Assembly (NCBI GenBank): GCA_903837125.1
Contig: CAILTG010000055.1
Location: 2,199-66,198, forward strand
Length of the DNA stretch: 64,000 nt
Origin: Candidatus Magasanikiibacteriota bacterium
GTDB taxonomy: Bacteria > Patescibacteriota > Patescibacteriia > Magasanikbacterales > UBA922
Reading direction: 5' to 3'
A model generated the notes under the pieces. The model searched no databases. It was not told the DNA's origin and saw nothing but the letters and a program-made list of their open reading frames with translations. The first letter of the stretch is position 1, and each line of letters begins with the position of its first letter. Below, piece by piece: positions 41,211-58,500 of this stretch. Both the position numbers and the translations under genes were made by a program.

Positions 41211-43103
41211 TTATGTTTCACTTTTCGGTTCAGCTCCTCCCATTTGTTCTTCATATTCTTTCTTAGCTTTTTCTATATCTAATAACTGTTGAGGATTAGT
41301 AGTAACTAATTGATCTTCAGTATAAGAGGCTACCACCTTGATGGCGGCATGTTTTAAACCGGCAAAGAAAATCCCCTCGCCCACTGCAGTTTCCAGTAAT
41401 AAATACTTCTCTCCTTCAGTCAACATAAAAGTTTTCTGTACCATTTCAATAGCCGCCGGCGACTGACGTAGGAGTAATTGCAAAGCAGAATTAGTAACAA
41501 TTGCCTGGCCGTATTGAGAACGTAAAAAATCATTCACGTCTTGGGTGATCGTGGTTACTCCCAAATAATACTTGCGACAACGTTTTACCAAAGCATAAAT
41601 AAATTTGGCACTATCTTCATTGGTCATTAGCCACCAGGCCTCATCAATAATCATAATTCTCTTTTTTCTTTCACTACGCACCACATTCCAAATATAATTA
41701 ACTAAAGTATAAATAGCCATGGGCCGCAATTCATCTTCTAAATCACGCACCGAAAACACCACCAATTGATTACTCATGTTGACATTGGTAGGTGAATTAA
41801 ACAGCCCTGAGAAAGTACCAATGGTAAATTTGCTTAATTTTAAAACCAAATTTTCTGCCCCCTGCATTCCTTCCAAAACTTCTTGCAAATCCTGCATAAT
41901 CGGCGCCTCTACTGTCGTTAAATCAGCATTGGCAGTAATATCTTTTTTAGCAAAAGTTTCCAACAAGGCCTTGTCCATAAGTGAATCTTCTTGAGAGGTA
42001 AGCGTGTTGAACATGATTCTAATTAACCCTTTTAAAGTAATTACGGCACTTCTAATAATATCCTCGGTGGATACTTGCTGGCCAACTGGACGAGGCAAAT
42101 CAAAAGGATTTACTTTTGATTCTGAAGCCAAAGAAATATTAACATAAGTGCCGCCCACTGCTTCACAAAGATGCAAATATTCCATTTCCGGATCAATAAT
42201 AATAATATCAGTGCCCATCATTAAAGTACGTAAAACTTCTAATTTAACGGCATACGATTTTCCCGAACCAGCCGTGGCAAACACCACCATATTGGCATTT
42301 TGTAAAGAAAAACGATCAAATAAAATAAGACTATTATTGTGGCGATTAATACCATATAATACTCCATCATCACTAGTCAATTCTGAAGAAATAAAAGGAA
42401 AAGAAGAAGCAATAGGCGAAGAATTCATGTTGAAAGAAACCGTAAGTTCATCAATACCAAGTGGCAGAGTTGAATTAAAACCCTGTTCAGCCTGAAATAA
42501 AACATGCTTACTATAAATTAATTTACTGCCAAAAATATTTTCCACATCTTCGGTTATTTTATTCAATTCTTCTAAATTCTTGGAATATAAAGTTACATAA
42601 AAAGAAAATTGAAAAAAATGTTCTACCCCTTGGGTTAAATCATCGCGCAGTTGTTCAATATCTCTGAGGGCTGTTTCACGTAAAGGATCACGAGCCGCGC
42701 CTTTTTCAGTATCTGAACTAATTTGAGCTTCTAGCGCTCCTACTTTTTTCTTTAACTGTTTGAGAATTATTTCAGCATTTACCGGATAAAAAAACATGGA
42801 AATATCCATGGTAATATTTAAATTCAAAATCGGCGAACTCCAACCAACGGCAATATACCGAGGATAAGTTATTACATAAATGGTCCGCAAAAAAATATCT
42901 CCCAATTGAATATAATTTGATTCAACTCTAAAAGCCGAAGGAGCAATCAAATCCTTAATAGCCACCGTGCCTTCCCGATAAAGCTGCTCTTCTTTTAAAG
43001 TAGTTATTTCCTCTTCTATTTTTTTATTTCGCAACCTATCCTCTGCTACCTGTCCGGCCAAAGCACCACGGGCTTTTTTAATTGTAGCTGGCTTAAAAGC
43101 CAT
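41211..43103 (-). CDS. VirB4/TraE-family type IV secretion ATPase (Gram-positive-size variant)
   Basis: 630 aa. Walker A VVFATAGSGKSYAV, NPFDL motif (SKVNPFDLP), Walker B RIMIIDEAWWLM, and C-terminal GVTTITQDVNDF, which are the hallmarks of VirB4/CagE/TraE AAA_10 ATPases. Confidence 0.7.
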   Translation of the reverse strand: MAFKPATIKKARGALAGQVAEDRLRNKKIEEEITTLKEEQLYREGTVAIKDLIAPSAFRVESNYIQLGDIFLRTIYVITYPRYIAVGWSSPILNLNITMDISMFFYPVNAEIILKQLKKKVGALEAQISSDTEKGAARDPLRETALRDIEQLRDDLTQGVEHFFQFSFYVTLYSKNLEELNKITEDVENIFGSKLIYSKHVLFQAEQGFNSTLPLGIDELTVSFNMNSSPIASSFPFISSELTSDDGVLYGINRHNNSLILFDRFSLQNANMVVFATAGSGKSYAVKLEVLRTLMMGTDIIIIDPEMEYLHLCEAVGGTYVNISLASESKVNPFDLPRPVGQQVSTEDIIRSAVITLKGLIRIMFNTLTSQEDSLMDKALLETFAKKDITANADLTTVEAPIMQDLQEVLEGMQGAENLVLKLSKFTIGTFSGLFNSPTNVNMSNQLVVFSVRDLEDELRPMAIYTLVNYIWNVVRSERKKRIMIIDEAWWLMTNEDSAKFIYALVKRCRKYYLGVTTITQDVNDFLRSQYGQAIVTNSALQLLLRQSPAAIEMVQKTFMLTEGEKYLLLETAVGEGIFFAGLKHAAIKVVASYTEDQLVTTNPQQLLDIEKAKKEYEEQMGGAEPKSET

Positions 43104-43132: not shown

Positions 43133-43831
43133 CTATTCATAATTATTTTCAATCTGCAATTGTTCAACTGCTCCCAGTCCTTCAGAAAAAGAAATATCAG
43201 GATTATAAGTTGCATAATATAATTCTATCAAAGCCTGGGTGCCTAACTCGGCAATTTCCAAACCCACACTCTGTAAACCACCAGCTACCTGCCGCACTCG
43301 GCTATCTAAATCCCCTTTTCTCTGTTTAAATCTTTCTTCTTTTAATCGAACAGTTAAGGCTGGTTTTATTACTTCTTTAAACCGCGCCCAAAAACTTTTT
43401 TTACGGTTGGACATGGGATCATAAGGAATAATCACATAAAATCTTTTAGTAACAATTTGACCCATTTCTACCAATTGTTCCACAAATGAACGATAATCGG
43501 CAATCTGAATCCTTAACAATTCATTACTTTGACTTTTTTCTGTTTCAAGTAATCGATCAAGATAAGGTTTTATTTGCAAACGCCGAGACTGAATTTGTAT
43601 CTGCAACGGAAAATCAATGCTGTTTAAAAAACCAACGTAAGCAGAAATCAGGGCCTCTTGTTCATCATCGGATTTTAAAGAAAAATTGATGCTAGAGACC
43701 ATTAAAACCGACCGCAAAGTGCCATCTTTTAAAATCACCACTCCATCTTTTATTTCCGCAATCGGCAGATAAGTTTGGGTGGCAGGTTTACTAGCAATTT
43801 TCTTTTGTGCCTTCTTAGACTTCATAAACAA
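43133..43831 (-). CDS. Hypothetical protein (232 aa) encoded immediately upstream of the VirB4-like ATPase
   Basis: No motif was recognised. There is a 29-nt gap to the ATPase gene and it is out of frame with it. Confidence 0.45.
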   Translation of the reverse strand: MFMKSKKAQKKIASKPATQTYLPIAEIKDGVVILKDGTLRSVLMVSSINFSLKSDDEQEALISAYVGFLNSIDFPLQIQIQSRRLQIKPYLDRLLETEKSQSNELLRIQIADYRSFVEQLVEMGQIVTKRFYVIIPYDPMSNRKKSFWARFKEVIKPALTVRLKEERFKQRKGDLDSRVRQVAGGLQSVGLEIAELGTQALIELYYATYNPDISFSEGLGAVEQLQIENNYE

Positions 43832-43845
43832 ATACCATTATACCA

Positions 43846-44271
43846 TTAATCTTCCGGTTTATAAAACCCACCAGTATTTACTATTAGCGCCAAATCGCGC
43901 ACATGCTCTGACTTCACTTTTTTTCTAATCTCTTTTTCCGGAATTTTTTCAACCTCCAGATTTCTAAAATAATCTAATTCTTCTTTACTATAAAACTTAC
44001 GCCAAATACGCAAAGAAGGCTTTCGTACTGTTTGTAAAATATTCAATAAAAAATAATGGAATAACTGACCATTCACTTTAACAAAAGAAAAAACTAAGGC
44101 CAAACTGCCAACTATCACTAAAACAGTAATGAATAAACTAAAATCCGCATATTTATAAGCCAAAAAAATTAATAAGCTAGCAGATAATAATATCAAAAAC
44201 TGCCGGGTGGTAATTGGCCCAAATATTTTATCTTCCACATCAATAAATTGAGGAACAACAAACTGTTGCAT
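43846..44271 (-). CDS. PrgI/TcpE-like (VirB3-like) small two-TM protein
   Basis: 141 aa. It reads IDVEDKIFGPITTRQFLILL followed by two hydrophobic helices, which resembles PrgI-family proteins of Gram-positive-type T4SS loci. It is adjacent to the VirB4-like gene. Confidence 0.5.
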   Translation of the reverse strand: MQQFVVPQFIDVEDKIFGPITTRQFLILLSASLLIFLAYKYADFSLFITVLVIVGSLALVFSFVKVNGQLFHYFLLNILQTVRKPSLRIWRKFYSKEELDYFRNLEVEKIPEKEIRKKVKSEHVRDLALIVNTGGFYKPED

Positions 44272-44275
44272 ATTT

Positions 44276-45364
44276 TCAATTGTTAAGTTGGCTGTTCACC
44301 TCTACCAGTGCGGTAAACTCAGTGGTTTTCATTTGACTACCCTGACCATTATTAGCATCCAATAAACTGGCTATTTTGGTTTTCTTTTCTAAAGCCTCTC
44401 TAATCACTCCTTGGTACTGTTTATAAAGAGGACTAACCTGCCAAGCATTAAGTGCTTCAAAAAATAACAAATATGACTCTTTTTTAAAAACAGCAAATTT
44501 GTCAGCCAAAATTTTACCTGCTTGAGATGGCTTATTACTCAAACGCCGAAAATCTGTTAAAGAAAACATTTTTAATTCTTCAATTGGCCCTACACTTCTT
44601 TTTTCAACCACCGGAGCAATCACATCATGAATTATTGGTCTGGCGGCTTGGCTGTTTATTAAAACTGTCTGATTTGGGGGTATCTCCTGGCTCTGCAATG
44701 ATTCATTAACCAAGTGGTCAAGTGGTTTAGTGGTTGGGTGGTAAGGTGGTAAGGTGCTTGAATGGTTCAGTGATTGAGTGTTCAAATTTTTAATCGCCTC
44801 AAGCAACTGTTTAGCCTGATCCTGGCTCCAACCTAAACCGCCAGAATTTTCCAACTTAAGACAATATTCAATTACTTGATCATCCGTACGCACATCTTTT
44901 AAACGCGAAACCACTAAAGGACGAAGTCGTGAAAGTTGTTTATCAGTAACCGGAAATTTTATTTTTTTCATTATTCCACTAAATTCATCTTCTTTATTAC
45001 TTGGCAAAGACTCCAAATCAAAATCAGTTTCCTCCACTTTTTCTTCCAATGGTGACACCTGGTCGCCCTCTGTCCATTGTTTTATATTCGGCAAAATTTG
45101 ATCTTTCGATCTTTCGATCTTTCGATCTTTCGCCACAGCCATCGCCGCCGCTTCATCAATAAAAATATCAGTCACCGGCGTACTGGTAGCCAAAGCTTGA
45201 CTCTGCGTCTCCATTGGCAGTGCCTCAATCGGTGCTTTTGCATTCAGTTGCTCAGGTGTTGAGGTGCTCAAGTTTTCTTTATATTTTTTAAACTCATCCA
45301 TAGTCATACGAACCGACGTACCGTCGGCTTTTTTGACAAGGATAGTTGGTAATGATAAAACCAT
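44276..45364 (-). CDS. Hypothetical protein (362 aa) containing an in-frame 9-bp x4 tandem repeat
   Basis: No known motif. DNA 45100-45135 is (gatctttcg)x4, encoding ...KDRKIERSKD... Confidence 0.45.
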   Translation of the reverse strand: MVLSLPTILVKKADGTSVRMTMDEFKKYKENLSTSTPEQLNAKAPIEALPMETQSQALATSTPVTDIFIDEAAAMAVAKDRKIERSKDQILPNIKQWTEGDQVSPLEEKVEETDFDLESLPSNKEDEFSGIMKKIKFPVTDKQLSRLRPLVVSRLKDVRTDDQVIEYCLKLENSGGLGWSQDQAKQLLEAIKNLNTQSLNHSSTLPPYHPTTKPLDHLVNESLQSQEIPPNQTVLINSQAARPIIHDVIAPVVEKRSVGPIEELKMFSLTDFRRLSNKPSQAGKILADKFAVFKKESYLLFFEALNAWQVSPLYKQYQGVIREALEKKTKIASLLDANNGQGSQMKTTEFTALVEVNSQLNN

Positions 45365-45373
45365 AAAATATTA

Positions 45374-46885
45374 TTATACAAATTTCTGATTTGGTCTGGT
45401 AGTATTCAACTTCCATTGATTATCTTTTTCTGAATAATAAATCAAAGGTCCATATTCTGGAGAAAATAATTCCTCATACAATTGACTCAAAACTAAAATA
45501 CCAGAAAAATAAGGATCTTCCTGCCAATCAGGTAAATCCATAAAGGCACAAATCAATTCCACGCGCAAAGCAAATGGACGATTAACAATTTTAAAATAAG
45601 TTTTAATATTTTCAGCAGACTCTTCATCTATTTCACCGCTAATTATTTTTTGCCAATCAAAATTCGCATCCTTTTTTAACATTTCACCCAAAATATGATG
45701 AAAATCTATTAAGTCACAGTCACGCAAATGCAAATATAAATTTAAAACACCCAATAATTTTGGCTCCAGACTTATTGGCCAACTATTCTTGGCAATCTCC
45801 GCTTTTACATAATTTTCCTGATTTGCTATTTCTAATTCATTGTTGCTTCCGGCCAAATAAGCACCAATAAATTGACCAATTGTTAGACTATCATCACCAT
45901 TCTCTTGAAAATACACAACCTCTTGGTTGGCCAACAAGCTCTCGGCCAGGGTGGCTGATTGTACCAAATATTCATCCAAAAATCTCTGATCTACTAAAAT
46001 ATTAATTAACACGCTTCGCCAAGGCGCGTTTAAGCAAAAACCTGTCCAAAAATATTTTTCAATTAAAGTTTTTCTTTCTTCAACAATAAAATCCGGAAAG
46101 CCTTTTAAAATTAAAAATACTAAACCAATAATAAATAAATAATAATCAAATTCCTGGTGCAGTTCTTTATTAAAGTTTAACTTTAATAAAAAAGACTTAG
46201 CCCAAACCTGTAGATCTGCTTCATTGCCATAAAAAGACTGACCTAAAAATCTAAGTAACGATTGCCAATCAGGTACCTGGCCATTTTTTATTTCCTCTTC
46301 TAATTCCTGCACCGTATATCTGTGCTCAGTTTGATAAAAAAGTAACAAAGAACCAACCAACAAAAATTGCTTCTGCAAATAATTATAAGAAATAAAGATT
46401 GATTTTAATGTTTCTTCAACTTTTATTGCTGTTTCTACATCCAAAACAACTAATCTAGCAACGAGTTCTTTTACAGCCTCTGTTTCCCAACCAAGGCTTG
46501 CTAATAATTTACTCCAATTTATCTCATTCGCTTCAATAATATCAGCAGTTGCGCTTTTTGGCCAAATATTTTGCAATGAATTTAAATCTAACAAAAGATT
46601 ATTCAACATTTCATTATCTATAGTATCTACACCCATTACCAAAAAAGCAATTTCAAGATCTTTACCCACTTTTTTAATACTAAATTCATCATTAACATCT
46701 TCCACTAAAAACGACAAACCGCGCCAAAAAGAATTGTATGTCCAATTACGGCCAAAAATATTTTTAGACAGTTCCGAAATATTGGACAAGACCAAAAATT
46801 TTTTGTCCCACCATTCTTCTGGATTGTTAACTATATTTTGATACATAACCAATTTATTTCTGACCGGATTAATAAAATATAACAA
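45374..46885 (-). CDS. Hypothetical protein (503 aa), likely cytoplasmic
   Basis: A long uninterrupted ORF packed 9 nt from its downstream neighbour. No recognisable motif. Confidence 0.45.
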   Translation of the reverse strand: MLYFINPVRNKLVMYQNIVNNPEEWWDKKFLVLSNISELSKNIFGRNWTYNSFWRGLSFLVEDVNDEFSIKKVGKDLEIAFLVMGVDTIDNEMLNNLLLDLNSLQNIWPKSATADIIEANEINWSKLLASLGWETEAVKELVARLVVLDVETAIKVEETLKSIFISYNYLQKQFLLVGSLLLFYQTEHRYTVQELEEEIKNGQVPDWQSLLRFLGQSFYGNEADLQVWAKSFLLKLNFNKELHQEFDYYLFIIGLVFLILKGFPDFIVEERKTLIEKYFWTGFCLNAPWRSVLINILVDQRFLDEYLVQSATLAESLLANQEVVYFQENGDDSLTIGQFIGAYLAGSNNELEIANQENYVKAEIAKNSWPISLEPKLLGVLNLYLHLRDCDLIDFHHILGEMLKKDANFDWQKIISGEIDEESAENIKTYFKIVNRPFALRVELICAFMDLPDWQEDPYFSGILVLSQLYEELFSPEYGPLIYYSEKDNQWKLNTTRPNQKFV

Positions 46886-46910: not shown

Positions 46911-49900
46911 TTACGGCCTTGTCCTACCACTTCTTCTAGGGGTACCACCACTCGGTGCCACCACTGGTACTGCTCCCGTACCAGCTGTTCCAGTAGTTGG
47001 TGCTGGAGTAGGAGTTGTCGGTTTTGGTGGTTTCTCTGTCGCGCTTTCTTGGGCTTGCGACAGCTTATTAGTTATTTCAGCAATATTTAAATCCAACACG
47101 CCTTTAGTTTTCTCTCTATGCTTTTCTATAAATTCAATAAGATCATAAACATCCTTAATCTCTTGCTCATCTCCATTTTCATCAGTATACGCATTATTGG
47201 CCATACCTCTTATGGCTGCGTTAAAACCACCTTTTAATGAAGACCGGGAACCTAGTACAGCCATAAAGGCTGGGCCGACTGCTGAAAGTGCAACTGCCAT
47301 ATTGTCGGCGGCATGTGCCAAAGTCAATTTCATTGCTTCTTTTTCTCTATCAACTGCACTCAATTTCTTATCTTTTAATGAATCAAAATATTTTTTATAA
47401 AGCTTTGATTTTTTACCGCCAATCACTGCTCTACCGCTAGCATTTATTTCCGCCTTTTCACCAGGCGTCAAAAAGCCAGCCAAAAGATCACCTTCACGGC
47501 CATGATGCCCTTCCATAATACGTTCAGTATTGGCGCCACTATATGACTCACGTAAGGTGTCAATATTTTTCATTTCCATTCTAAACGTGCCATCATCTTC
47601 ATCATATTGGCCATTACTATGACACATAATTCTTCTCATTCTTTCGTTCACAGGGATCTTGCGCCAATCTGCTGTAATAAACGCCAAGGCATTTTTGGCA
47701 GTCTGGCCTCTAAACATTCCTTCATCCATATCATAATAAGTATGCCCGCCATCATCTAAATGCCCATCTGCCAAAGCCAAATTTTTGGCATCAGCCAGCA
47801 TTTGATTGGCTTCAGTATGGCTTTTCATTTTTGTTTTAAATTTATCCATGGCCCCTGATGAGGATTTTGCACCAACCAAAAAAGTTCTAGCAAAAGAAGA
47901 TAATTCATTTTGAGCACGATCAGTTGTAAAACCTAATTTAGTAGCCAAACCTGCCAAAGGACCGATTAATTTACCAGTTAATGCATCTATAGAACTCTGC
48001 AATACTCCTCCGGTTAATTCCTGCCCTGCACCTACACCTAAAGCATCACGAACTTGATCGCCTAAATTAACGCCAGAAGCAGTATAGCCCATGCCAGTAC
48101 TATCCATATGACTTAACACTGCACTTTCACTTGTTAACAATTCAAGATCTCCAGCATTGCCTATTAACCTATGCAATTGATTGGTTCTTTCATTATCAGA
48201 CTTGTTATCATAAATCAATTTGCTCCCTTCCATATGACCCCAACCCAAGGTGTCCACAAATACTTTTTCCAACATTTGACCTCTTTCGGCTTCTTCACCG
48301 CGCAAACCACCAGCTTTGGAGGCTTTCACTTGATTACCAATTCTTCCCAATAAATCATCAGACCAGCCTTGTTTGGTTAAATAAGTAATACTCGCCATAA
48401 GCATGGCTTCTTGATCACGGCCTAAAGTTTCGCCTTTTTCTTTGGCGGTTAATAACTTGGTCATATCGCCAAACGCCATGCCCACAGCTTGTTCTCTTTC
48501 TATACCATTATAATCTTCCATTTTTTTCTTAATTAAAGATTTAAAAGCCGTGGCCGGTACATGGTGACCATATCTTTCAAAACTGTATTGATCATCGGCT
48601 TCGTCGGTTAATTCTTGCTTGGCAATGCCAGAATGTTCAGCATAATATTTTGATTCAATAGCGCTTCTAGCCTGAAGAGCACCAGCAGATTTACCCAAAG
48701 TTTTTCGAATATCTTCTAATCGGCGCAATTCTGCTTTTGACTGTGCCTGATTTACATTATTTTTTGTGGCAACAGCACCAGCCAATTTGCCTTTTTCCTC
48801 ATTAATTTGTTTAGCATTTTCTTCCTTAGCTTTTAAATCGGTTAAACCAGCACTAAAAATATGCTGTAAATCGGCTTGTTTTATTTTATCAATAAATTTA
48901 TCGGCAGCCTCGGTAAAAATTTTATAAACTTCTTCTTGTTCAAAAAACCCTCTCGGCCCAGCTAAGCCTAAGGCTTTTTCTTTCATTTGGGTTTCAGCAG
49001 ATTTAACACCAGCTTCTTCACTGGCTAATTCCAATTGTGACCTAATTTGTTGCGCCATGCCAGACTGTATTCCAGGCGATTTCTTGCCAGCAAATTTTGG
49101 AACCAATTCAGCTCTTAACGCAGAAATCTTTTGTGCAATTTGAGCTTCAGCCATTCCAGGGTTTTGTCTAATTAAAGCAGTGCGCAATCCTTGTTCGCCA
49201 TTTTCCACATAAACTTTTTTTAGATCTGCATCTTCTCTTCTTGCCTTAGCTGCAGCATACTCCGGCGATTTTTCGTCTGCTTCTAACTTTTTTCTGGCAG
49301 TCAATTTATCATCAACTTTTTTTAAATCTATTTTTTTTGCTGGAATAATAGGATCATTTTCTATGGCTAATGTAGCTCTTCCGCGTAAGTCGTCATTTGT
49401 TGTAGCATTTAATTCGTCTTCTTCTTTCATTTTAGCTTCGGCAATGGCTATTGCTTTTTCAGCATCAATCAAAACCCGTGGTTTTTCCACTTTTCCTGTT
49501 CCTTCTTCAACTGCTTTTAAAGCTGTAGTTGCTGCTGCCATTTCAGTTTCAATCCCTGCCCTTTTAGCCCCAGGTCTTTTCATCTCTTCTTCCAAAGCAT
49601 GTACTGCCCTACTTTTTGCTAAAATATCTTCTTTCCAGGCCTTATAACCGGAATTAGGATCAATCATAACGCCTTTTTTTACGGTTTCTGCCGCGGCGAT
49701 TTCATCTTGAATCGTTTTTCTTACACCAACATGTCTTTCTTTTTCTGTTTGTAAATCTGGTTCTACTACATCGTAATGCACTTTACTTAAAGCATCAATT
49801 TCAGTCGCCAAAGCACCTCTATTTCCTTCTAAGTTTTTAACTTCAGTTGATTTAGCATCTTCATCAATTTGTCCTTCAATTTCTTCTTTTTGTGCCAATT

Positions 49901-52532
49901 CATCTCTGCCTTCTTGTCTGTTTAGTCTTTTTCTTTTGTTAATTACAGTATCTTTTTCAATTTGTGCGGTTTTGGTAGTGGTTTCTGCAGCTGTTACTCT
50001 GGCCACCAAATCTTCACTAATTTTATAGTATTTAGTAGTGGCTGTATCCTTAGCCCCTTTTGCTTCCTGTTCACTCGCCTTCTTCTCCTCTTCTGCCTGA
50101 ATCACCCGAACATAAGGATTCACATTTGCCAACTGTGCTAATTCATAATGAGCTGCTTCTTTGGCCTGTGGAGTAGTGGCCTGATCAATTTTTAATCTTA
50201 CTTTTTCCAAAGCTTTTTTGGCCTCATCAAAATTAACTGTTAATTCAGCATTTTTTAGAGCTTCAACAATGGCTTTGGCGCCTGCTTCTTCTTGTTGGGC
50301 TGTGGCAATCCGCGCTACATATCCAGCACCAGAAGTTGTTTGACCCATAAAGGCCTTGGCTTTCTGGCTTTCGGCCTCATGTTCGGCTTTGGCAGCATCA
50401 AAATCCCACTTAATTTTCTGGCCTCTAATATTGGCGGCCAAACCTTCACGGTCGGCGCGAGATAAATTCATTGGCTTCCCATTTTTGTCTAACCTTACCG
50501 GAAGATCAACTTTATTTCTGGTAACATCCTGAGCTAATTGTTCAACCACATCACCTTCACGTTTAGCAAGCTTCTTACCCTCTGAAGTATTTACAGCGAA
50601 GTCGCTGTTACCAAGCCTGGCCCTGCCGGCATTCTCCTGTTTTAATAAATCATCCAAGGCTTCCTTCTTTTGGGATTCAGTCATTCCTGTATTATCTTCA
50701 ATAGCTTTTACTGCCAGTCTATTTTCCGCACTGCTATTCCGTAAAGCATTCACATCTGCCAATTCGCCATATTTTGCCCGATTGCCGCCTTGACCTAAAA
50801 AGCCTTTATAAGCCTCGGCTTTATCCGCGTTCAAATCCGTAAAACGCACTTCTAACAATGACAAAGCTTCTCTGTCAGCCTTGCCCTTCTCTGTCTCTTC
50901 TCTTCTTTGTTGTGAAATTTTACTTCTAGCCTCAACTTGATCATGAGCAGATTCAGCAGCATATTTATGTTCGCCAGAAGCTGCTGCGCCTCTGCCAAGC
51001 GCCACGCGGGCAATGCCACCTTTATCATAAGCCCACTGGCCAATTTGATCCCTATAGGTTAAATTTTCTCCACGACGCATGGTTTTTTTAGTATCTTCTG
51101 TTCGCAATTTATTTTCCTTTTCTGTATCTTCCAATATTTTCTCTCTCCTCAACCTGCCATAACTTCCGAGCAAAGGGAATTTACGCAAAACCGGAGTAGT
51201 GGCGCGCATGGTATTTATGCGCTTGCCCATAATTTTTGCCGTATCCGTAATAGGTGAAAAAAATCGTTTGGCTCCTCCCGCCAAGGCAGCCTTACCAAGA
51301 GAAGTAGCTTCACTCTTGACTTTTCCTCCCAAAAACCTAGCTGTAGCAAAACCAGTAGCAAAAGCCAAAACTCCTGTACCAATTTTTACTCCCTGAGAAA
51401 CCATACTACCACCTATCACACCCATTTCCTGAACTTTTTGCAGACCGACCAATAAAAAGGCCACGGCTATAAAAAAACTAGCCATGTTTTCCCAACTACT
51501 TACTTCCGCCAAAGTGGCAGCCTGTTTAAGTGGCCCTGTACCGCCTGTAGAATCACTAAAATTAGCATTTAAACCATATTTTGTTTCTGAAGCGGCATCC
51601 ATTTGAAAAGCCGTTGGCATACCTTTCTTCATATCAGTAGCCGCATCGCCCGCGCCCATGGTGGCAAAAGTAAGCCAGAGGAAAAAAACCATTACTGGTG
51701 CCACCAGCACATGTTTACCAAATTGTTTCCACCACTCCTGCGCATATTGCTGAGTTTGAGGAAGCACTTGAGCAATAAACGCTATAGGCGATAAAATTAT
51801 TAAAACCCACAGTACCACTACTCTAATCAACATCACCACCATATAAGTACCCATGGTTACCAAAGTTACCACAGCAAAAAAACAAGAAGCCGCCACTGCC
51901 ATAAATATTTGAGCCGTTATACTTCCTTCTGCACCTGTTAAGGTGCCACCAGCAGTGGCCATCTTCAACATGGCATCCATGTGAAATAGTGAAATAAGAT
52001 TACCACCAGCAGTGGCAGCTACAGCATTTAAAAAAGTAATAGTGAAAACATGTGCAATATCTATAACCAAACCACAAATTAAATTACTAAAATTAATAAA
52101 CACGGCTGCGAAGACAAACTTAACCAAAGTTTTTTTCCATTCATATTGTTCAATACCTAAAATTGTGCCAATGGCAATAGCCAACAAGACCACCACAAAA
52201 AACATATTAGCCACGTCACGCACCATGGCCCAACCAAGCAACACTACTGGCGAATCTATAAAGCCGTTATAACCAGCTGCTTGAATAAAAAATCTTAAAG
52301 CAAAAATCGCCAGCTGAATGCAGAGCTGAGCAATCCAAAGCATTAAAGCAATAGTGGCATCCACCAAATATTCAGCACCAGTACTTACTAATTCCACTGC
52401 TTTAACATTTGGCGCCAAAACCAACCAACCTAAAACCAACACTGCCGTCAACACCAAAGACCACTGCCAACCCTTTTTGGTTTGAGGGAGAAGAGTTTTG
52501 AATAATCTTTTAATTTTTACTTTAACACTCAT
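46911..52532 (-). CDS. Giant (1873 aa) VirB6/TrbL-like polytopic membrane protein with a ~1400-aa hydrophilic, coiled-coil-rich C-terminal extension ending in a Pro/Thr-rich basic tail
   Basis: The N-terminal ~420 aa contain a signal/TM segment plus at least 6 further TM helices in a VirB6/TrbL-like arrangement. The remainder is Ala/Lys/Glu-rich with many predicted coiled coils. The tail is PPKPTTPTPAPTTGTAGTGAVPVVAPSGGTPRRSGRTRP. Confidence 0.5.
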   Translation of the reverse strand: MSVKVKIKRLFKTLLPQTKKGWQWSLVLTAVLVLGWLVLAPNVKAVELVSTGAEYLVDATIALMLWIAQLCIQLAIFALRFFIQAAGYNGFIDSPVVLLGWAMVRDVANMFFVVVLLAIAIGTILGIEQYEWKKTLVKFVFAAVFINFSNLICGLVIDIAHVFTITFLNAVAATAGGNLISLFHMDAMLKMATAGGTLTGAEGSITAQIFMAVAASCFFAVVTLVTMGTYMVVMLIRVVVLWVLIILSPIAFIAQVLPQTQQYAQEWWKQFGKHVLVAPVMVFFLWLTFATMGAGDAATDMKKGMPTAFQMDAASETKYGLNANFSDSTGGTGPLKQAATLAEVSSWENMASFFIAVAFLLVGLQKVQEMGVIGGSMVSQGVKIGTGVLAFATGFATARFLGGKVKSEATSLGKAALAGGAKRFFSPITDTAKIMGKRINTMRATTPVLRKFPLLGSYGRLRREKILEDTEKENKLRTEDTKKTMRRGENLTYRDQIGQWAYDKGGIARVALGRGAAASGEHKYAAESAHDQVEARSKISQQRREETEKGKADREALSLLEVRFTDLNADKAEAYKGFLGQGGNRAKYGELADVNALRNSSAENRLAVKAIEDNTGMTESQKKEALDDLLKQENAGRARLGNSDFAVNTSEGKKLAKREGDVVEQLAQDVTRNKVDLPVRLDKNGKPMNLSRADREGLAANIRGQKIKWDFDAAKAEHEAESQKAKAFMGQTTSGAGYVARIATAQQEEAGAKAIVEALKNAELTVNFDEAKKALEKVRLKIDQATTPQAKEAAHYELAQLANVNPYVRVIQAEEEKKASEQEAKGAKDTATTKYYKISEDLVARVTAAETTTKTAQIEKDTVINKRKRLNRQEGRDELAQKEEIEGQIDEDAKSTEVKNLEGNRGALATEIDALSKVHYDVVEPDLQTEKERHVGVRKTIQDEIAAAETVKKGVMIDPNSGYKAWKEDILAKSRAVHALEEEMKRPGAKRAGIETEMAAATTALKAVEEGTGKVEKPRVLIDAEKAIAIAEAKMKEEDELNATTNDDLRGRATLAIENDPIIPAKKIDLKKVDDKLTARKKLEADEKSPEYAAAKARREDADLKKVYVENGEQGLRTALIRQNPGMAEAQIAQKISALRAELVPKFAGKKSPGIQSGMAQQIRSQLELASEEAGVKSAETQMKEKALGLAGPRGFFEQEEVYKIFTEAADKFIDKIKQADLQHIFSAGLTDLKAKEENAKQINEEKGKLAGAVATKNNVNQAQSKAELRRLEDIRKTLGKSAGALQARSAIESKYYAEHSGIAKQELTDEADDQYSFERYGHHVPATAFKSLIKKKMEDYNGIEREQAVGMAFGDMTKLLTAKEKGETLGRDQEAMLMASITYLTKQGWSDDLLGRIGNQVKASKAGGLRGEEAERGQMLEKVFVDTLGWGHMEGSKLIYDNKSDNERTNQLHRLIGNAGDLELLTSESAVLSHMDSTGMGYTASGVNLGDQVRDALGVGAGQELTGGVLQSSIDALTGKLIGPLAGLATKLGFTTDRAQNELSSFARTFLVGAKSSSGAMDKFKTKMKSHTEANQMLADAKNLALADGHLDDGGHTYYDMDEGMFRGQTAKNALAFITADWRKIPVNERMRRIMCHSNGQYDEDDGTFRMEMKNIDTLRESYSGANTERIMEGHHGREGDLLAGFLTPGEKAEINASGRAVIGGKKSKLYKKYFDSLKDKKLSAVDREKEAMKLTLAHAADNMAVALSAVGPAFMAVLGSRSSLKGGFNAAIRGMANNAYTDENGDEQEIKDVYDLIEFIEKHREKTKGVLDLNIAEITNKLSQAQESATEKPPKPTTPTPAPTTGTAGTGAVPVVAPSGGTPRRSGRTRP

Positions 52533-52580: not shown

Positions 52581-55500
52581 CTATTTCTTCTTCTCATTTG
52601 GTATCACAATAATCTTTGATTGAAAATAAGTCCAGGCGTTAATTTTTGTTGGATCACAATTTTTACTACTATCATCGCCATAACAGCCTTTAGGATCATT
52701 ACAATTACACCAACCCCAGTTGTCCATTAGTTGAACTTTGGGTTGAAAAACACACACCATAATCGCTGAAGGACTTTTTTCCCGTATGATCTTTTTCTGA
52801 TCCTCATCTAAACTATTAACAGGGGTGGTAGCAGTTTGATTATCACAAGCATAACCATGTTCAATTTTGAAATAATTTGCTCGGCAAGTGCGCATAATAT
52901 CACCAAAACTCTGGAGAGTATCATTAGGTAAACGACCACAAGTCGCAGCTGCGTCTATCCCCAAGCAATCTGAATTATCATTACAAGTTATTTGTTTGTC
53001 TTTATTACCAACCAAGCAGTGTTTTACCGTAAAATTACCACCATCATCATTTGATTCACAAATTGGCTTATTATTAAAGTAATAACCACTAATTCCTTGA
53101 CCATAAATTGGCAGATCATCACCCCAATCTATCATTAGTCTACGTAAAGGCATGCGGTTTTCATCAGCAAAACCATAAAATTCCACCATGGCGTTATAAG
53201 TGCCTATTCCTACTAAATTATCCGCATCAGTTAAGCCATTTTTATTTAAATCCTCTTCAAAAACATTGGTATCACCAGCATAATGAGCCCCAGGTAAACC
53301 ATTATTTTTATTTACTGTAAAAGTATTCGGCATCCAAGGAGTACATTTAACGGCCACCCCAGAAGTATTACTACTAGGTAAACAATTAACTAAATTAAGT
53401 GAATAAATTTGCGGCGGTAAAAGCTTGGCGAAAACACCAGAATTACTAGCAGCAACATCCACATCGCCACCACTGACAAGCTTTAATGTATTATCATTAC
53501 GTTTAACCACATAATATTCTTTAGCAAATAACTGGTGAAGTATTTCTCGGCCGTTAACACCGTTTAGAGTACCAAGGCCGGTGATTACATTATAGTAAGG
53601 ACTGGCAGTATTATCAGCCGCACTGGTAACTGTTTGGCCGTTAGCATCTAATATTGGAACCATTAAACCGGAACAACCTAAATAATAACTTGCTGCCACG
53701 TTAATTAAGCTGTCAGTTGCCCATAAAATTTGACTGCAAACAAATGGATAACCTGCTGCTGCCGGATCCATAAAATTATAATCAATAATTGAATCCTGGT
53801 TATGTACTAAATCAGAACCCTTCAAACTTAAATTACCAAACGGACGGCTGACACTGGTGTTATTTAACAATGTAGTAGTGGCAGCACCAGCTAATTTTAA
53901 AGTCAAAACATCTGCAGCATTTTTCCACACTCTATTAGTCCAGGCTTTGTTGGAAACAGGAATGCCAGAATAACTAATTGGTTGGTTTTCATTATAAACT
54001 TGCACATATTCTGTACAACGAGGATACAAATCGGCGATTACGCCGAGGTAAGGGTAAAGAACATGATTAAGCGCGTGGAGATTATTATTTGTAAGACTAT
54101 TAACAGGATTAGAAAACGTTCCACCTTCGCTTCTGGAAAATAGAGCTTTACCTCTATTCATTTTAGCTAAAGCAATAAAATTATTATTAAGCTTGGCACT
54201 CCAACCACTGTTGAAGTAGGAAGGATTGCTACAACCAAAACCCGCATAACAATTAAAAGCAATATTATCATATACCTGGTCTTTGTAACCACTCTCAAAA
54301 GTTGAAAGATCTAAATTATTATCTGAATCAAATTTGAATAAAGTGGCGCGATAAAAACCGTTAAGACTCCCCTCATACGCAGATGCAGTCTGTACACCAC
54401 AGTCTTTGCCAGGGTCAAGTCCGCTAGGTAGATTATTATATTTATTGGCAGTATCCACCGCTAATCCTGAATCTGTAGATTCTATATTTGGACATTCCAA
54501 TTCATTACTAATAATACTACCAAATCTATCTGAATTTATTGAACTTGGATTACCTTCATATTGGTCGTTATCATCAACCACTACACCAATCACCAAATGA
54601 TTATCATTCTTATTTTTTGCATAAAATGCCACAGCAGTAACGTTCCTTGGAGTTTCTGGAGTGGTGTGTATATTTAAATGAGCTGAACTAAAATCTAAAA
54701 GAAAAGTATAAGTAACATAACTCCAATTTGGAGAACGACGGTCAATACTATTTGGTTCAGGAGGGTTTAAATAAAGTGAACGCAAACGATCCACATCAAT
54801 TTTTACATTATCTATTAGAGCAAAACTTCTATCACTACCAGTAAAGCGTGTACCCTTATAAGAATAGGGAGCCAAATATAATGCCTTAAGATCTTTTTCA
54901 TTAACTTTTTTTGTAGCAACATACGGCTTTGAAGCTACCCCAGTAAAATCATTAAAATAAGAATCACCAAAGCCCATTAAATTAGTAGGGGCACAACTAC
55001 CACTACTACTACAGGTTACAGTCTCTTTCTCACTCCACTTCACTGGATCATGCGCCAACAGCACTTGAGCCGTGGGGCTAATTTTTAGCCAGGAGTAGGT
55101 TTGGAGGTAGGTGTAGAAAGTATTACTTTTGTCGCTAGAGTTGACTTTCTTTGAAAAAGAATCAGCACTTAGATTATTATTACACCAACCCAAAACAGAT
55201 TTTGTATAATCCTCTTGGGGATCACCATATTGAAAAGTACTCGTGTCATTACAAATTTGCTCTGTAAATGGGTTAATCATCCAAAAAAAGTTATCTTTAT
55301 CAAACATCGAAATAAAATGACCTTTAGTATTTTTATCAGTACAATCAAGTGCAGAATTGACATTTGAATCCTGAAAAATTGAAGGAACAAAACACTTATT
55401 CAAATAATCATAAGCCAAATTAGCATAAGCTTCCACTTCTGGAGATGGGTCATTTAAAAAATTTGCTTTAGGATCAAAAGAGTTTTTTTTGCTAAATTCC

Positions 55501-58500
55501 TCTGACCATTCCTTATTAGGATCATATTTTGAAGGATCAAAAGCACGTAAACTTCGCTGTGTTCTAAAAGCTAAATATTGAACAAAAGCATTATCAGCTG
55601 GTTCAAAAAAATGGTTCGGCTGTCCAAAACATTCTGTCTTTATATTTTCCACCCATTCATAACACACACCAGGAGTACCAGTATATGCTAAACAAGTTAT
55701 GTACTGTTGTCTTACAGGAATAGGTTCAACCTTGCACCATTCAAACCGCCCCGCTACTGATGAATTATTATCATATTTAGAAGGATTTTCTCTTGGTGGA
55801 AAATAACTCTCTATCAAACCATTCCCTTTTCCATCCTTTTCCATTTTCTGATTAATATCAGAAAAATTTTCATATATTGGTGTAAGTAATCCATATAGGT
55901 TTACCATTCCAAAATTTTTCCAATAACTCTTTTCATAACTGAGCGGCGCCGTAGAATTGGTGCAGTATACTTCTCCAATACTAGGATTGGCATCTATACC
56001 AGTAGTATAGCCAAGATTGGGATTGCCATTTATATTGTCGGCAGTACCGCCAGCTAAATCTAGTGGAAGCCAGGTGAGACAAGGAAAAATTATTTTGCCA
56101 GTGCTGTCTGTGCCCAACGGATGGCTTAGATCATTTTCTAAACAATAACCAGTTGTTCCTTTATATTTATCTATGGAAGACTCTTGCGCGCAAACACCAT
56201 TGGTATTATCACCACTATTACAGTCAGTATCTACTAAACAAGCAAAACCATCTTTATTTCCACCAGTACAAATACCCTGAGGCCTTACATCAAAAGGATT
56301 TTTTAAAGTTGAATTATCAGGCCAGTAATCAGGCAATACTCCTTTGTAATTAATTTTTTCATATTGGCAAGAACAGTCTACATTGGCTTGACAAACATTT
56401 ACTCCTTTATAATCATTTTTTATATTAGTAAATTCTGCGCGCCAACCCCCCTTATCTGGTGTATTCTTAAACCATTTTTTTCCATTTTCTACGCCATTTT
56501 TAGCATCATTAACTTTGGAATCTACCACCAAAGATTCAGGAAAAGGTGAAGTGGCTTCAGGATGAGATTTACAAATACTCTTGGACCAAGCAGAACTAAC
56601 CACCGCTTTTTCAACACCAGTATTTATATCAACTATACCAACATCAGCAAATGGACCATCTAATGGATAAATACAACTTCCGTTATAACAACGGCCGCCG
56701 TTATCTATGCCACAAATACCTTTAATAGAATTACCTGAACTATCTATACAATTGGCATTATTGGAATCTGAATGAACTAAATAAAGTTTATTACTTGAAG
56801 GAAAACTAACTGCCCGATCAGTTGCCAAATTATAGCGATTCAACAGCGAATAACCAGAATAATCTGGTTCAGCCCAGCCCACCGCGCGCCCTACATAAAA
56901 GGCTTCATCCAACAAATTATTATTTGTGGTGGGGAGAAAATTATTGCAATAACCGTCTGGGGTAGTTTGATTGCACAAACCAAAATCTGAACAATATTTA
57001 ATGGTTTTACCAGTTTCGGTTTGCAAATCAAAAGAAGTACGGCAAGACAGCCATTCAGAACATTCACGATCACGCCTTACTTTTAACAATAAATTAGTGT
57101 CAAGCTGGCCAGTGGTTACCGGAGGAACTGGTAAAAACCGCTCTGGCTTGGTAGCGGCCGAGTTGGCATAAGTAGCCCCACTATTATAAATTTTATTGGG
57201 ATCCTCAGTGCGGTTAAACAAAACGCAGCCCCTAGTTTCGCCCACTTTATTATTACAACCATTTATTTGATCTGACGCTTGGTCTACTAAATCTTGGCTA
57301 TAAATTACATAGTAAGGCTTACCAGTGGGATCTTGTGCAGAAGTAGCCACCGTGTCCAAGAGCTCGGTACAAGCATTATTGGCTTCGTCACATTCCCCTA
57401 CATTGCCTTTATAACTACTAGTATTACCATTAGACCAAATACCGTTTTCAATATTATTTTGCAAATAATTATCATAACAAGGAACCGGATTTGTTTTCTG
57501 ACAAGAATTCCCTTGGCCACAGTCATCATCAACGCGACATAATTGGGCAGAACCAGAACTGCAATAGCCTATATCTTTCTTAAACCAACCATAAGCTTGT
57601 GTTGGATTAATTGGATCATGTTGTTTGTAATAGCAAAGACTGTTGCCGGTTTGTAAAGGATCTTTGAAATAAAAAGTATTGGCTCCATAAGTATAACCGC
57701 TGCAACCAAGCAAACCACTGCGGCATAAAGTTCCTTTAATTCCAGTAGTATCATTGGTTAAATAATTAGCCGGATTATTTTTATAATACACGTCAGAAAA
57801 TTGATAAGAAGTGGTATCAGAATTCGGCAAAATATGATTTTCCTGACCAAATTTTTGACAACCCAATTCAGCTTGCGTGCAAGTGAGTGGTGTACTGCTG
57901 GCTAAATTATAAGTGGTTAAGAAAATTGGTGTATGATCAGAAGTATCTGCGGGAATAACTATGGTGGAAGTAACTACATATAATTCACCAGTATCGGTTG
58001 AAGTGGTTGGCTCGGTGTGACCACCAGAATGAAATGAATTAAAATGTATAATACCCTTGGTGTGATCAAAAGCAGGATTGATAGTATAATAATCTGGAAC
58101 ACTCACTGGAGCTTGTGTGTAACCAGTAGGACTTACTAAACCCTGGACAAAACAACGATCTTCTCCAGGTAAAACTGTACAACCATAGGTTCCATTATCA
58201 CCCACAGTAAATGAACACTTGGGAGTTGTAGAAGTAAGCCTGCATTCAGCATTATAAAGCTGTATTTGTTGATCTAGTGGATTACCAGAAATACGGTTAT
58301 GCGAATCATAAACCGCGGTACAACCCACTGCCTCAGGCCGACACATTTTAGCAAAACCAGTTAAATTTGCTTCAACATTCTGTTTATTAATAGCAGAATT
58401 TACCACATCAATATAAGCTTTACAACCCAAAGCCTTGCCTGGATAAGGAGTTTTAGCATTACCTAAATCTTCATCAGTGGTGCCAAAACAAGCGCCCGGA

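Follow-up and report, generated by a model that had tools for sequence, protein, structure and literature searches.

A conserved His-core, fused to the T4SS VirB6 protein in some genomes and split off in others, is the main new result of our analysis of the window (the whole 64,000-nucleotide stretch of DNA examined). As it is either fused to VirB6 or encoded separately directly downstream, the His-core domain is a separable T4SS accessory module and a partner of VirB6. In the window, it lies in an extended VirB6-like T4SS subunit of 1873 aa with 243 homologs, of which the named ones are from Candidatus Magasanikbacteria. The ORF list shows a single uninterrupted frame over the span given in the earlier note, 46911–52532, on the minus strand (all features below are on this strand). 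The protein is modular, with a VirB6-like domain followed by a basic juxtamembrane segment, a linker, a globular domain, and a disordered Pro/Thr tail. Misassembly or artefactual gene fusion is ruled out, because 21 independent species-representative genomes share the same architecture.

The His-core in fused and free-standing forms

The C-terminal module opens with a helical lead-in (residues 1151–1329; 48546–49082), for which AF2 gives long helices (H45-106 and H110-171 in module numbering) at low to moderate confidence, with pLDDT values of 34–80. The lead-in is followed by a conserved globular domain (residues ~1330–1830; 47043–48545), which AF2 models as an alpha/beta fold with pLDDT ~90 and pTM 0.75. 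In alignment A2, the C-terminal module shows a mean column identity of 32% and sharp motifs, those of the globular domain being GVEREQAV, YLTKQAWSDDLL, GHLDDGGHTxYDMD, and DWRK..LKxHS..MDEDxGT. Searches of Pfam, PDB sequences, PDB folds, and BFVD gave zero matches for the globular domain. Pfam scans of the module and of all 22 members of A2 returned only scattered single-member matches (E > 0.003). Foldseek comparisons of the module with the PDB (best probability 0.21, TM ≤ 0.15) and with BFVD (TM ≤ 0.22, to tape-measure, tail, and pilot proteins with long helices) were rejected as helix-driven noise. Likewise, no relative emerged from PDB sequence searches, run with the full-length protein and with profiles A1 (N-domain) and A2 (C-module), TSG-6 and ribosome recycling factor being chance matches with E > 0.01. 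Among 1.84 billion cluster representatives, just 139 matched the module, and the same search found no His-core motifs outside the Magasanikbacteria-like family.

Within the globular domain, the His-core (residues 1562–1811; 47100–47849) is homologous to free-standing soluble proteins of ~650 aa, with which it aligns over 237 columns (hhalign 98%, E = 1.9e-13). This core of ~250 residues carries the pattern H-x-[DE]-[DN]-G-G-H ... K ... H-x6-E ... R. Across 31 sequences, His1591, Gly1596, His1597, Lys1625, His1638, and Arg1679 (H1591, G1596, H1597, K1625, H1638, R1679) are invariant in both the fused and free-standing forms, and E1645 is kept in 94%. The free-standing proteins, 633–714 aa long and devoid of TM helices and signal peptides, match the His-core only, and their genes directly follow module-less VirB6 genes in loci L006 and L009. 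A profile search with this free-standing family (A3) recovered its own members only, so that the family has no link to annotated proteins.

Lengths and architectures were counted in 64 complete orthologs from species-representative genomes. The His-core is fused in 21 and split in 4, and the other 39 carry long extensions, for which a His-core could be detected neither in the protein itself nor next to it; the module is therefore non-obligatory. Ortholog lengths range from 945 to 2108 aa with a median of 1330, and 4 of the 64 reach at least 1873 aa. The view in the earlier note that the extension is exceptionally long does not survive this comparison, nor that with Anaplasma VirB6-4, which reaches 4,322–9,935 aa.

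The VirB6-like membrane domain and the T4SS gene cluster

The first ~400 residues form a conserved VirB6-like channel/platform domain. This N-terminal polytopic membrane domain (residues 1–400; 51333–52532) is kept in all of the 120 homologs listed, at 42–49% identity. Hydropathy places ~8 hydrophobic segments at residues ~22–400 and zero beyond, in agreement with the multi-TM N-terminus described earlier. The first hydrophobic helix (residues 22–42; 52407–52469) is preceded by a basic N-terminus and followed by a family-conserved P-A-x-A motif; judged from these sequence features, it is probably a cleavable signal peptide or signal anchor.

Pfam and NCBIfam scans of the full-length protein gave nothing useful, and only with the isolated N-domain did a weak TrbL match emerge. 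PF04610 (TrbL) covers residues 113–304 (51621–52196; profile positions 6–190 of 215) with 17 bits and E = 0.005, below the gathering cutoff of 25.9, whereas homolog P0025, which matches the N-domain of the query with E = 1.5e-109, scores 27.4 bits over the same region and passes the cutoff. TrbL is matched by 9 of 35 family members (best E = 2.2e-6), and other families by none. Precomputed annotations carry TrbL and TrbL_3 (PF19590) matches on many homologs; TrbL_3 was absent from all Pfam scans made here, of query and homologs alike. The AF2 model of the domain is all-helical and of moderate confidence only (pLDDT 71, pTM 0.63). Its top seven Foldseek matches in the PDB are all R388 VirB5/VirB6 stalk chains (probability 0.63–1.0), the best three at a probability of 0.99–1.0 and E = 6e-3. 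The fold similarity to R388 VirB6 comes with low TM-scores (0.27–0.41), an rmsd of ~10 A, and ~12% identity, and the chain is presumed to be TrwI/VirB6 from its length.

The gene encoding this protein heads a cluster read in one direction. It is followed by two conserved operon partners, one of 503 aa with one hydrophobic segment (45374–46885), which has an ortholog in the same position in locus L003 (29% identity, E = 2e-39) and no Pfam or NCBIfam match, and a soluble one of 362 aa (44276–45364) with orthologs in L003, L006, and L009. Next come a small PrgI/VirB3-like membrane protein of 141 aa (43846–44271; PF12666 at 33.7 bits against a cutoff of 27), 70% identical to its L003 ortholog, and a TrsD/TraC-like protein of 232 aa (43133–43831; NF041427 TrsD, E = 2e-7), which is related to the N-terminal region of VirB4 and whose L003 ortholog is annotated as PF26593 TraC-like. 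TrsD is the most abundant T4SS component in Patescibacteria according to published work. The VirB4 ATPase itself, of the Gram-positive CD1110 type (630 aa; 41211–43103), scores 350.7 bits to NF045971, above the cutoff of 325, matches P-loop_TraG with E = 5e-29, and is 79% identical to its counterpart in a Candidatus Magasanikbacteria MAG. The 232-aa and 630-aa ORFs are not a split VirB4, because the shorter is a separate conserved TrsD/TraC-like gene. The last conserved gene encodes a single-pass membrane protein of 192 aa with one hydrophobic segment (40609–41187; ortholog L003_196, E = 4e-32).

The order VirB6ext, 503 aa, 362 aa, PrgI, TrsD, VirB4, 192 aa is kept in a Magasanikbacteria locus, and all four core components of the Patescibacteria T4SS (VirB4, TrsD, PrgI/VirB3, and VirB6) sit in one co-directional chromosomal cluster. 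Relaxase, VirD4, and integrase domains were not found in the scanned ORFs of the window. The cluster is flanked by housekeeping genes, including KsgA and comF, and an adjacent gene encodes a giant secreted Cys-rich protein with 110 Cys. The locus matches the published T4SS of Patescibacteria (class ABY1/Magasanikbacteria).

TrbL/VirB6 proteins are recognised by at least five hydrophobic helices, to which the ~8 segments at residues 22–400 correspond, and by joint coding with VirB3 and VirB4 homologs, here PrgI and VirB4 on the same strand 2.6–5.7 kb downstream. Could the N-domain nevertheless be an unrelated multi-pass membrane protein that looks superficially like VirB6 and lies beside T4SS genes by coincidence? 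We hold this to be very improbable. Although the query stays under the Pfam threshold, a homolog passes it, and TrbL is the only family that any of the 35 members match; although the TM-scores are low and the PDB sequence search with the family profile gave zero matches, the seven best fold matches are all stalk chains from R388. In addition, the operon with PrgI, TrsD, and VirB4 is kept in distant relatives, and virB4-adjacent VirB6 homologs are documented across Patescibacteria in PMC12102498. The VirB6/TrbL-like character that the earlier note ascribed to the N-terminus is supported by the TrbL matches, the ranking of the fold matches, and the downstream PrgI, TrsD, and VirB4 genes.

Linker, tail, and the side of the membrane

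Beyond the membrane domain, the remaining 1453 residues are hydrophilic and rich in Ala (12.9%), Lys (9.9%), and Glu (9.6%), as had been described, and this extension of ~1450 residues holds only 1 Cys. Its largest part is a hypervariable Ala/Glu/Lys-rich linker (residues ~451–1150; 49083–51182, from the coverage map, composition, and repeat search), which over most of its span is common to only ~1–12 of the 120 homologs listed, and to more toward both ends. The ~700-residue linker is largely helical with only one short heptad-periodic stretch. Compared with composition-matched shuffles, heptad periodicity reaches z = 2.8 and 6.7 in windows over residues ~933–1016 (49485–49736), and sustained periodicity was not found elsewhere in the extension, where z is mostly < 2. 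The heptad-like periodicity claimed earlier thus holds for this segment, the remainder being indistinguishable from shuffles. The proposed coiled coil of ~1400 aa has to be given up, as periodicity covers ~80 residues and the last ~500 before the tail are the globular alpha/beta domain with pLDDT ~90.

Tandem or internal repeats in the extension were not found with TRF or self-BLAST, TRF reporting just one 30-bp array in the tail, and Pfam scans of the linker gave only scattered single-member matches with E > 0.003. A single-alpha-helix (ER/K) signature was dropped, as i/i+3-4 salt bridges are modestly enriched and only in patches (z up to 3.9 at ~731–790 in the linker, 3.4 at ~1241–1300). The protein ends, as quoted in the earlier note, in a Pro/Thr-rich basic tail of 39 residues (residues 1835–1873; 46914–47030), which is also rich in Gly and disordered in AF2. 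The tail is not conserved in the family and is absent from most homologs. Because the tails of homologs vary greatly and many are acidic, the idea that this Arg-rich C-terminus is a conserved T4SS secretion signal was rejected.

The basic juxtamembrane segment (residues 398–480; 51093–51341, from charge counts) has a mean net charge of +7.7 at residues 398–460 in 35 family members, and the family-wide value at the N-terminus is +4.7. By the positive-inside rule, a segment so strongly basic that directly follows the last TM helix is expected to lie in the cytoplasm. Taken with the free-standing form, which carries no signal peptide, it favours a cytoplasmic extension as far as sequence can tell. 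The single Cys in the extension, compared with 110 in the adjacent secreted giant protein, points to the same side, and the C-terminus of classical VirB6 is cytoplasmic (cited in PMC7648143). The hypervariability of the linker speaks against this placement, since it also fits an exposed region under diversifying selection.

Such variability between relatives would be expected of the surface projection suggested in the earlier note, a reading that we consider unlikely. The extension would then exit the cytoplasm by way of the T4SS channel or beside it and form a long fibrous adhesin or contact structure on the surface, directed at the host bacterium, as has been proposed and in part shown for extended VirB6 proteins of Rickettsiales. 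The Pro/Thr-rich tail is similar to the wall-spanning linkers of Gram-positive surface proteins, but most homologs lack it. Patescibacteria are thought to depend on host contact and cannot grow epibiotically without their T4SS. The neighbouring Cys-rich secreted giant protein is a better candidate for the surface. The C-terminal extensions of Anaplasma VirB6-3 and VirB6-4 are accessible to trypsin on intact cells (PMC7648143), but the present extension has neither repeats nor sequence similarity to those of Rickettsiales, and its coiled-coil periodicity is confined to ~80 residues. Moreover, a surface location is at odds with the basic segment (+7.7 family-wide), with the zero further hydrophobic segments in the extension, and with a free-standing homolog of the domain that has no signal peptide or TM helix.

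Proposed function and comparison with known systems

We think it likely that the protein is the VirB6-type subunit of a chromosomal, conjugation-derived (MPF-FATA-like) T4SS of Patescibacteria, Magasanikbacteria/ABY1-like, with a modular, probably cytoplasmic extension whose separable His-core may bind or process substrate. In this model, the VirB6-like gene would be co-transcribed with PrgI/VirB3, TrsD, VirB4, and the three conserved genes of unknown function, and the extension would stay in the cytoplasm, where classical VirB6 also has its C-terminus. Should VirB6 form a pentamer here as it does in R388, several His-core copies would be held by their linkers below the channel, close to the VirB4/TrsD ATPase assembly. 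In this position, the His-core may bind or enzymatically process the T4SS substrate, and it could partly replace the functions of the coupling protein and relaxase, both of which are missing from the cluster. More tentatively, the His-core might be a new catalytic or ligand-binding domain dedicated to the T4SS, serving as substrate receptor, processing enzyme, or exported effector of a Patescibacteria T4SS devoid of relaxase and coupling protein.

The invariant His, Lys, Arg, and Glu residues, which suggest an active site, could also belong to cargo. The T4SS would then deliver the His-core to the host cell as an enzyme effector, cleaved off VirB6 where it is fused or translocated as a protein of its own where it is encoded downstream. 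With a conserved N-domain and variable C-terminal content, the family would be built like polymorphic toxins. The cargo reading seems to us quite unlikely. The module is present in ~40% of family members and the others have different long extensions, but where present it is well conserved (mean column identity as above, sharp motifs) rather than polymorphic, and the fold searches in the PDB and BFVD found no similarity to known toxins or effectors. The free-standing form has no Sec signal, although its gene is closely linked to those of the T4SS, and cleavage and release of extended VirB6 C-termini have been proposed in Rickettsiales (PMC7648143). Export of proteins by the Patescibacteria T4SS has been suggested in the literature. 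Against export as cargo, the protein has no conserved C-terminal tail resembling a secretion signal, and no small immunity-like gene lies downstream, the next genes being the conserved 500-/360-aa operon partners.

For the proposed tethered substrate-binding or -processing domain, the fusion/fission pattern gives testable hypotheses and a defined construct, either residues ~1330–1830 or the free-standing proteins of ~650 aa. Among T4SSs, that of Patescibacteria alone has been reported as essential for its owner to grow, and it is widespread in this large phylum, most of which is uncultivated. Relaxase and coupling protein, the defining components of conjugation, are mostly missing from its clusters, and its substrate and mechanism are unknown. 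In the present VirB6 family, the extension holds a discrete, confidently modelled domain with catalytic-looking invariant residues. If the proposal is true, a His-core dedicated to the T4SS would provide the first molecular lead to the cargo of this essential system. The channel identity and the general architecture of the locus are already published.

Classical VirB6 proteins have ~300–350 aa and no extension. VirB6-like proteins of Gram-positive elements, such as TcpH (pCW3), Orf15 (Tn916), and ConG (ICEBs1), have sizeable hydrophilic regions after the TM domain; at roughly 750–830 aa they are much shorter than the 1873 aa found here. With classical VirB6/TrwI (A. tumefaciens VirB6; R388 TrwI, PDB 7O3V, 8RT9, 8RTD), the present protein shares an all-helical polytopic domain, whose top-ranked PDB matches are the R388 stalk chains, presumably TrwI, at low TM-scores. 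The topology inferred here, N-terminus outside and C-terminus cytoplasmic, is also that of classical VirB6.

Another close system is the Patescibacteria T4SS (Quinonero-Coronel et al. 2025, PMC12102498; Wang et al. 2023, PMC10633639), which agrees with the present cluster in gene content and in the logic of gene order (VirB6, PrgI/VirB3, TrsD, VirB4). It likewise has a monoderm MPF-FATA-type VirB4 and is chromosomal and relaxase-less, with comF and KsgA nearby (class ABY1). These two papers do not describe a long modular extension, a His-core, or its fused and split occurrence; a search of the text of PMC12102498 found no discussion of VirB6 size or of a C-terminal extension, its sole mention of "C-terminal" concerning VirB1. 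No mention of VirB6 together with Magasanikbacteria was found in the literature searched.

In Anaplasma VirB6-3 and VirB6-4, too, a TrbL/VirB6 domain leads into a hydrophilic C-terminal extension that is very long (PMC7648143), and a possible N-terminal signal peptide has been discussed for these paralogs too. Tandem repeats make up the Anaplasma extensions, in arrays of up to 4,322–9,935 aa, and their surface exposure was established experimentally (PMC7648143). Rickettsiales encode VirB6 as several tandem paralogs in diderm intracellular bacteria, whereas here a single gene has no repeats and an extension with no detectable relationship in sequence. The comparison with Rickettsiales drawn in the earlier note therefore holds for the domain plan, a TrbL/VirB6 domain with a long hydrophilic extension, and fails for sequence and tandem-repeat organisation, neither of which is common to the two.

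The extended VirB6 subtype is defined by at least five hydrophobic helices and one or more large C-proximal hydrophilic domains (Alvarez-Martinez and Christie 2009, via PMC12857230), and in no case does the extra domain have a known function. The assignment to this subtype made from the first reading stands, with a VirB6-type TM domain followed by the 1453 hydrophilic residues. Compared with the subtype as described, the same helices and hydrophilic domain are found here in a monoderm CPR bacterium, and the extension contains a defined, conserved globular domain that is also found as a separate gene.

N-terminal domain and T4SS gene cluster

A single, uninterrupted ORF of 1873 aa (46911-52532, minus strand) encodes the VirB6-like query protein, in which hydropathy places about eight hydrophobic segments, every one within residues ~22-400. 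The remaining 1453 hydrophilic residues (Ala 12.9%, Lys 9.9%, Glu 9.6%, Gly 8.2%) contain only one Cys and end in a 39-residue basic tail rich in Pro, Thr and Gly, which confirms the basic descriptive picture of an earlier note (ORF, N-terminal hydrophobic segments, hydrophilic remainder and tail). The full-length query has no Pfam match; its isolated N-domain (residues ~1-400) matches TrbL/VirB6 (PF04610) alone, over profile positions 6-190 of 215, at 17 bits (E = 0.005), under the 25.9-bit gathering score. Database search found 243 relatives, several carrying a precomputed TrbL or TrbL_3 annotation. Among the 120 listed, 1031-2164 aa long, all share the N-domain (42-49% identity), and those that are named belong to Candidatus Magasanikbacteria or Patescibacteria. 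The homolog P0025 clears the TrbL threshold (27.4 bits) at the region equivalent to the query match, and TrbL is matched by 9/35 members of the N-domain alignment, other families by none. The AF2 model of residues 1-460 is all-helical (pLDDT 71, pTM 0.63). A Foldseek search of the PDB with this model gives seven top matches, each a chain of the R388 TrwJ/VirB5-TrwI/VirB6 stalk complex; for the three best, probability is 0.99-1.00 and E ~6e-3, at modest TM-scores (0.27-0.41).

The gene belongs to a tightly packed, co-directional T4SS cluster, all members located here being on the minus strand: VirB6, a 503-aa gene (45374-46885), a 362-aa gene (44276-45364), PrgI/VirB3 (PF12666 match above cutoff), a 232-aa TrsD/TraC-like gene (43133-43831), VirB4 of the Gram-positive CD1110 type (630 aa, 41211-43103; 350.7 bits, cutoff 325), a 192-aa single-pass membrane protein (40609-41187) and ComF. 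The 503-, 362- and 192-aa products, conserved operon partners without family assignment, have orthologs at matching positions in other Magasanikbacteria loci and are likely uncharacterised T4SS components. The 232-aa ORF matches VirB4 N-terminal regions; its reading as the N-terminal fragment of a split VirB4 was rejected, as it is a separate TrsD/TraC-like gene conserved next to VirB4 in Patescibacteria. Housekeeping genes (KsgA, RecQ, ClpP, SMC, ribosomal protein S7) flank the cluster, and no relaxase, VirD4 or integrase was found among the ORFs scanned in the window. L003, a locus from another Magasanikbacteria MAG, repeats the gene order with 79% (VirB4), 70% (PrgI) and 68% (TrsD) identity. 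Inside the L003 operon lie two small genes of the PDDEXK_3 and 23S_rRNA_IVP families (18446-18862 and 21615-21968), one separating PrgI from TrsD and one following VirB4; the window operon has neither.

Published Patescibacteria T4SSs comprise VirB4, TrsD, PrgI/VirB3 and VirB6; they are relatives of the monoderm class MPF-FATA and usually lack a relaxase, comF lies close by in class ABY1, and KsgA is a common neighbour (PMC12102498; PMC10633639). The window cluster resembles these systems in gene set, in nearby comF and KsgA and in that a relaxase was not found. The single organism tested needs such a system to grow as an epibiont. Because the N-domain evidence is joined by this published gene arrangement, which recurs in L003, we conclude that the query is the VirB6 subunit of a Patescibacteria T4SS. 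TrbL matches in relatives, the R388 fold matches and the gene cluster thus bear out the VirB6/TrbL identity first proposed for the N-terminus, and that the N-domain is not homologous to VirB6 at all is the least likely explanation.

Linker, C-terminal module and tail

Conservation divides the extension into three zones: linker, C-module and tail. The linker (residues ~450-1150) is hypervariable, with ~1-12 of the 120 listed homologs aligning over most of the span and more toward both ends. It contains no tandem or internal repeats, and enrichment of i/i+3-4 salt bridges is patchy. Hydrophobic residues show more heptad periodicity than composition-matched shuffles solely in windows spanning ~933-1016 (z = 2.8 and 6.7); elsewhere in the extension the periodicity is indistinguishable from that of shuffled sequence. 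With the heptad signal so confined and a large globular domain present, the extension is not the coiled coil initially described. The linker-encoding DNA (window 48001-52000) has a GC content of 0.39-0.44 against a background of ~0.35, and AT skew is strongly negative (-0.24) at 48-50 kb, within the VirB6 gene; both are probably codon-composition effects of the Ala/Glu/Lys/Gly-rich sequence, not signs of foreign origin.

About one third of the relatives have a conserved C-module (~1150/1270 to ~1810). Its 22-sequence alignment displays the sharp motifs GVEREQAV, YLTKQAWSDDLL, GHLDDGGHTxYDMD and DWRK...LKxHS...MDEDxGT, with E1345, W1390, D1392, D1393, K1583, H1591, G1596, H1597, K1625, H1638 and R1679 invariant. 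In the AF2 model built from this alignment (pLDDT 79.6, pTM 0.75), long helices of lower confidence (1151-1329) precede a compact domain (~1330-1830, pLDDT ~90), mainly helical and including several beta-hairpins, and a disordered tail follows it. The globular domain has no match in Pfam, PDB sequences, PDB folds (best probability 0.21) or BFVD, and only 139 proteins were retrieved when 1.84 billion cluster representatives were searched exhaustively with the C-module profile. In one species-representative genome (L059, 2802-8331) the VirB6 gene is divided between two overlapping ORFs (690 and 1181 aa), the C-module lying in the second; this split is a frameshift, pseudogene or assembly error. 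For many loci with Patescibacteria-type VirB6 (among L011-L090), the MAG record bears the title 'uncultured Gammaproteobacteria bacterium'; such titles are apparently placeholders or taxonomic mislabels and are not evidence of the family in Proteobacteria.

The Pro/Thr-rich basic tail is seen in only a handful of relatives (e.g. P0010, P0015, P0005), most having acidic or unrelated tails. Encoded at window 46914-47030 (minus), it is one of a minority (including P0005, P0009, P0010 and P0015) of low-complexity tails that are rich in Gly, Pro, Ser and Thr and strongly basic at the C-terminus, e.g. ...GGRGGKRRKP and ...KGPKKGKKRR; most other family tails are acidic.

The His-core module and its membrane side

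The majority of the 139 proteins are long VirB6 proteins with a C-terminal module, and a distinct subgroup of 633-714 aa matches profile positions ~360-505 only. In these free-standing proteins neither a hydrophobic segment nor a signal peptide was found, nor a Pfam match. On every contig that extends far enough, their gene directly follows that of an extended VirB6 (L006, 1490 aa; L009, 1652 aa), a protein that lacks the C-module and has only the N-domain in common with the query. In profile-profile comparison, fused module and free-standing family align over 237 columns (98% probability, E = 1.9e-13), which correspond to query residues 1562-1811, the His-core. All 31 fused and free-standing sequences have H1591, G1596, H1597, K1625, H1638 and R1679, and 94% have E1645. 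Species-representative genomes supplied 64 complete VirB6 genes: the His-core module is fused to VirB6 in 21, separately encoded just downstream in 4 and not detectable in 39, which nonetheless have a long extension. This fused or split occurrence beside VirB6 shows the module to be an accessory partner separable from it, not a structural prolongation.

Among 35 family members, net charge is +4.7 for the N-terminus ahead of the first helix and +7.7 for the 55-60 residues past the last hydrophobic helix, and internal loops are neutral to acidic. The P-A-x-A motif conserved after the first helix hints at cleavage by signal peptidase and at an N-terminus on the outside, the orientation of classical VirB6, whose C-terminus is cytoplasmic (PMC7648143). 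Cys is nearly absent from the extension, in contrast to the 110 residues in the adjacent 3220-aa protein. The latter, encoded directly upstream on the same strand across a 48-nt gap (52581-62243, minus), has a signal-peptide-like N-terminal helix and no Pfam match; it is a candidate for a giant protein that is secreted or displayed on the surface and may serve the T4SS locus as adhesin or contact factor. L003 lacks it at the corresponding place, where VirB6 is preceded by RsmB. Two further giant ORFs encode a 2466-aa protein with Peptidase_M48 and ABC1 atypical kinase domains (20061-27461, minus) and an 1830-aa protein with only a weak DUF294 nucleotidyltransferase match (13521-19013, minus).

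Because of the charge bias, the P-A-x-A motif, the free-standing homolog without export signal and the few Cys, these sequence features favour a cytoplasmic extension. This placement is not established, because the Anaplasma VirB6-3 and VirB6-4 C-terminal extensions are trypsin-accessible on intact cells (PMC7648143) and a hypervariable linker would suit an exposed region; the basic segment past the last helix, the free-standing homolog and the near-absence of Cys nevertheless speak against surface exposure, which, as put forward in the earlier note, is probably wrong or unsupported. In a proposed mechanism, the N-domain would join PrgI/VirB3 and VirB4 in a membrane channel or platform, like VirB6 of R388, and the basic segment and long helical or disordered linker would tether several His-core copies in the cytoplasm near the VirB4/TrsD assembly. 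There the invariant His3/Lys/Arg/Glu constellation may bind or process a T4SS substrate, partly compensating for the coupling protein and relaxase absent from the cluster. Alternatively, the His-core domain could be an exported effector, cleaved off or, when free-standing, translocated.

Relation to known extended VirB6 proteins

The query belongs to the recognised 'extended VirB6' subtype, the function of whose extra domains is not known (PMC12857230). Its supposedly exceptional length is not borne out: the 64 complete orthologs span 945-2108 aa (median 1330), 4 of them reaching at least 1873 aa, so that the query lies toward the long end of its family, and Anaplasma VirB6-4 lengths reach 4,322 and 9,935 aa (PMC7648143). 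Unlike Rickettsiales VirB6 extensions, to which no sequence relationship was detected, that of the query is not repetitive. The literature search found no paper connecting VirB6 with Magasanikbacteria, and in the available text of the 2025 Patescibacteria T4SS survey (PMC12102498) no treatment of VirB6 size or C-terminal extension was found. Patescibacteria T4SSs, their VirB6 homologs and the extended-VirB6 class are already published (PMC12102498; PMC10633639; PMC12857230); what appears to be new is the architecture, which combines a hypervariable linker, a conserved, fold-orphan His-core domain and a fused or split distribution.
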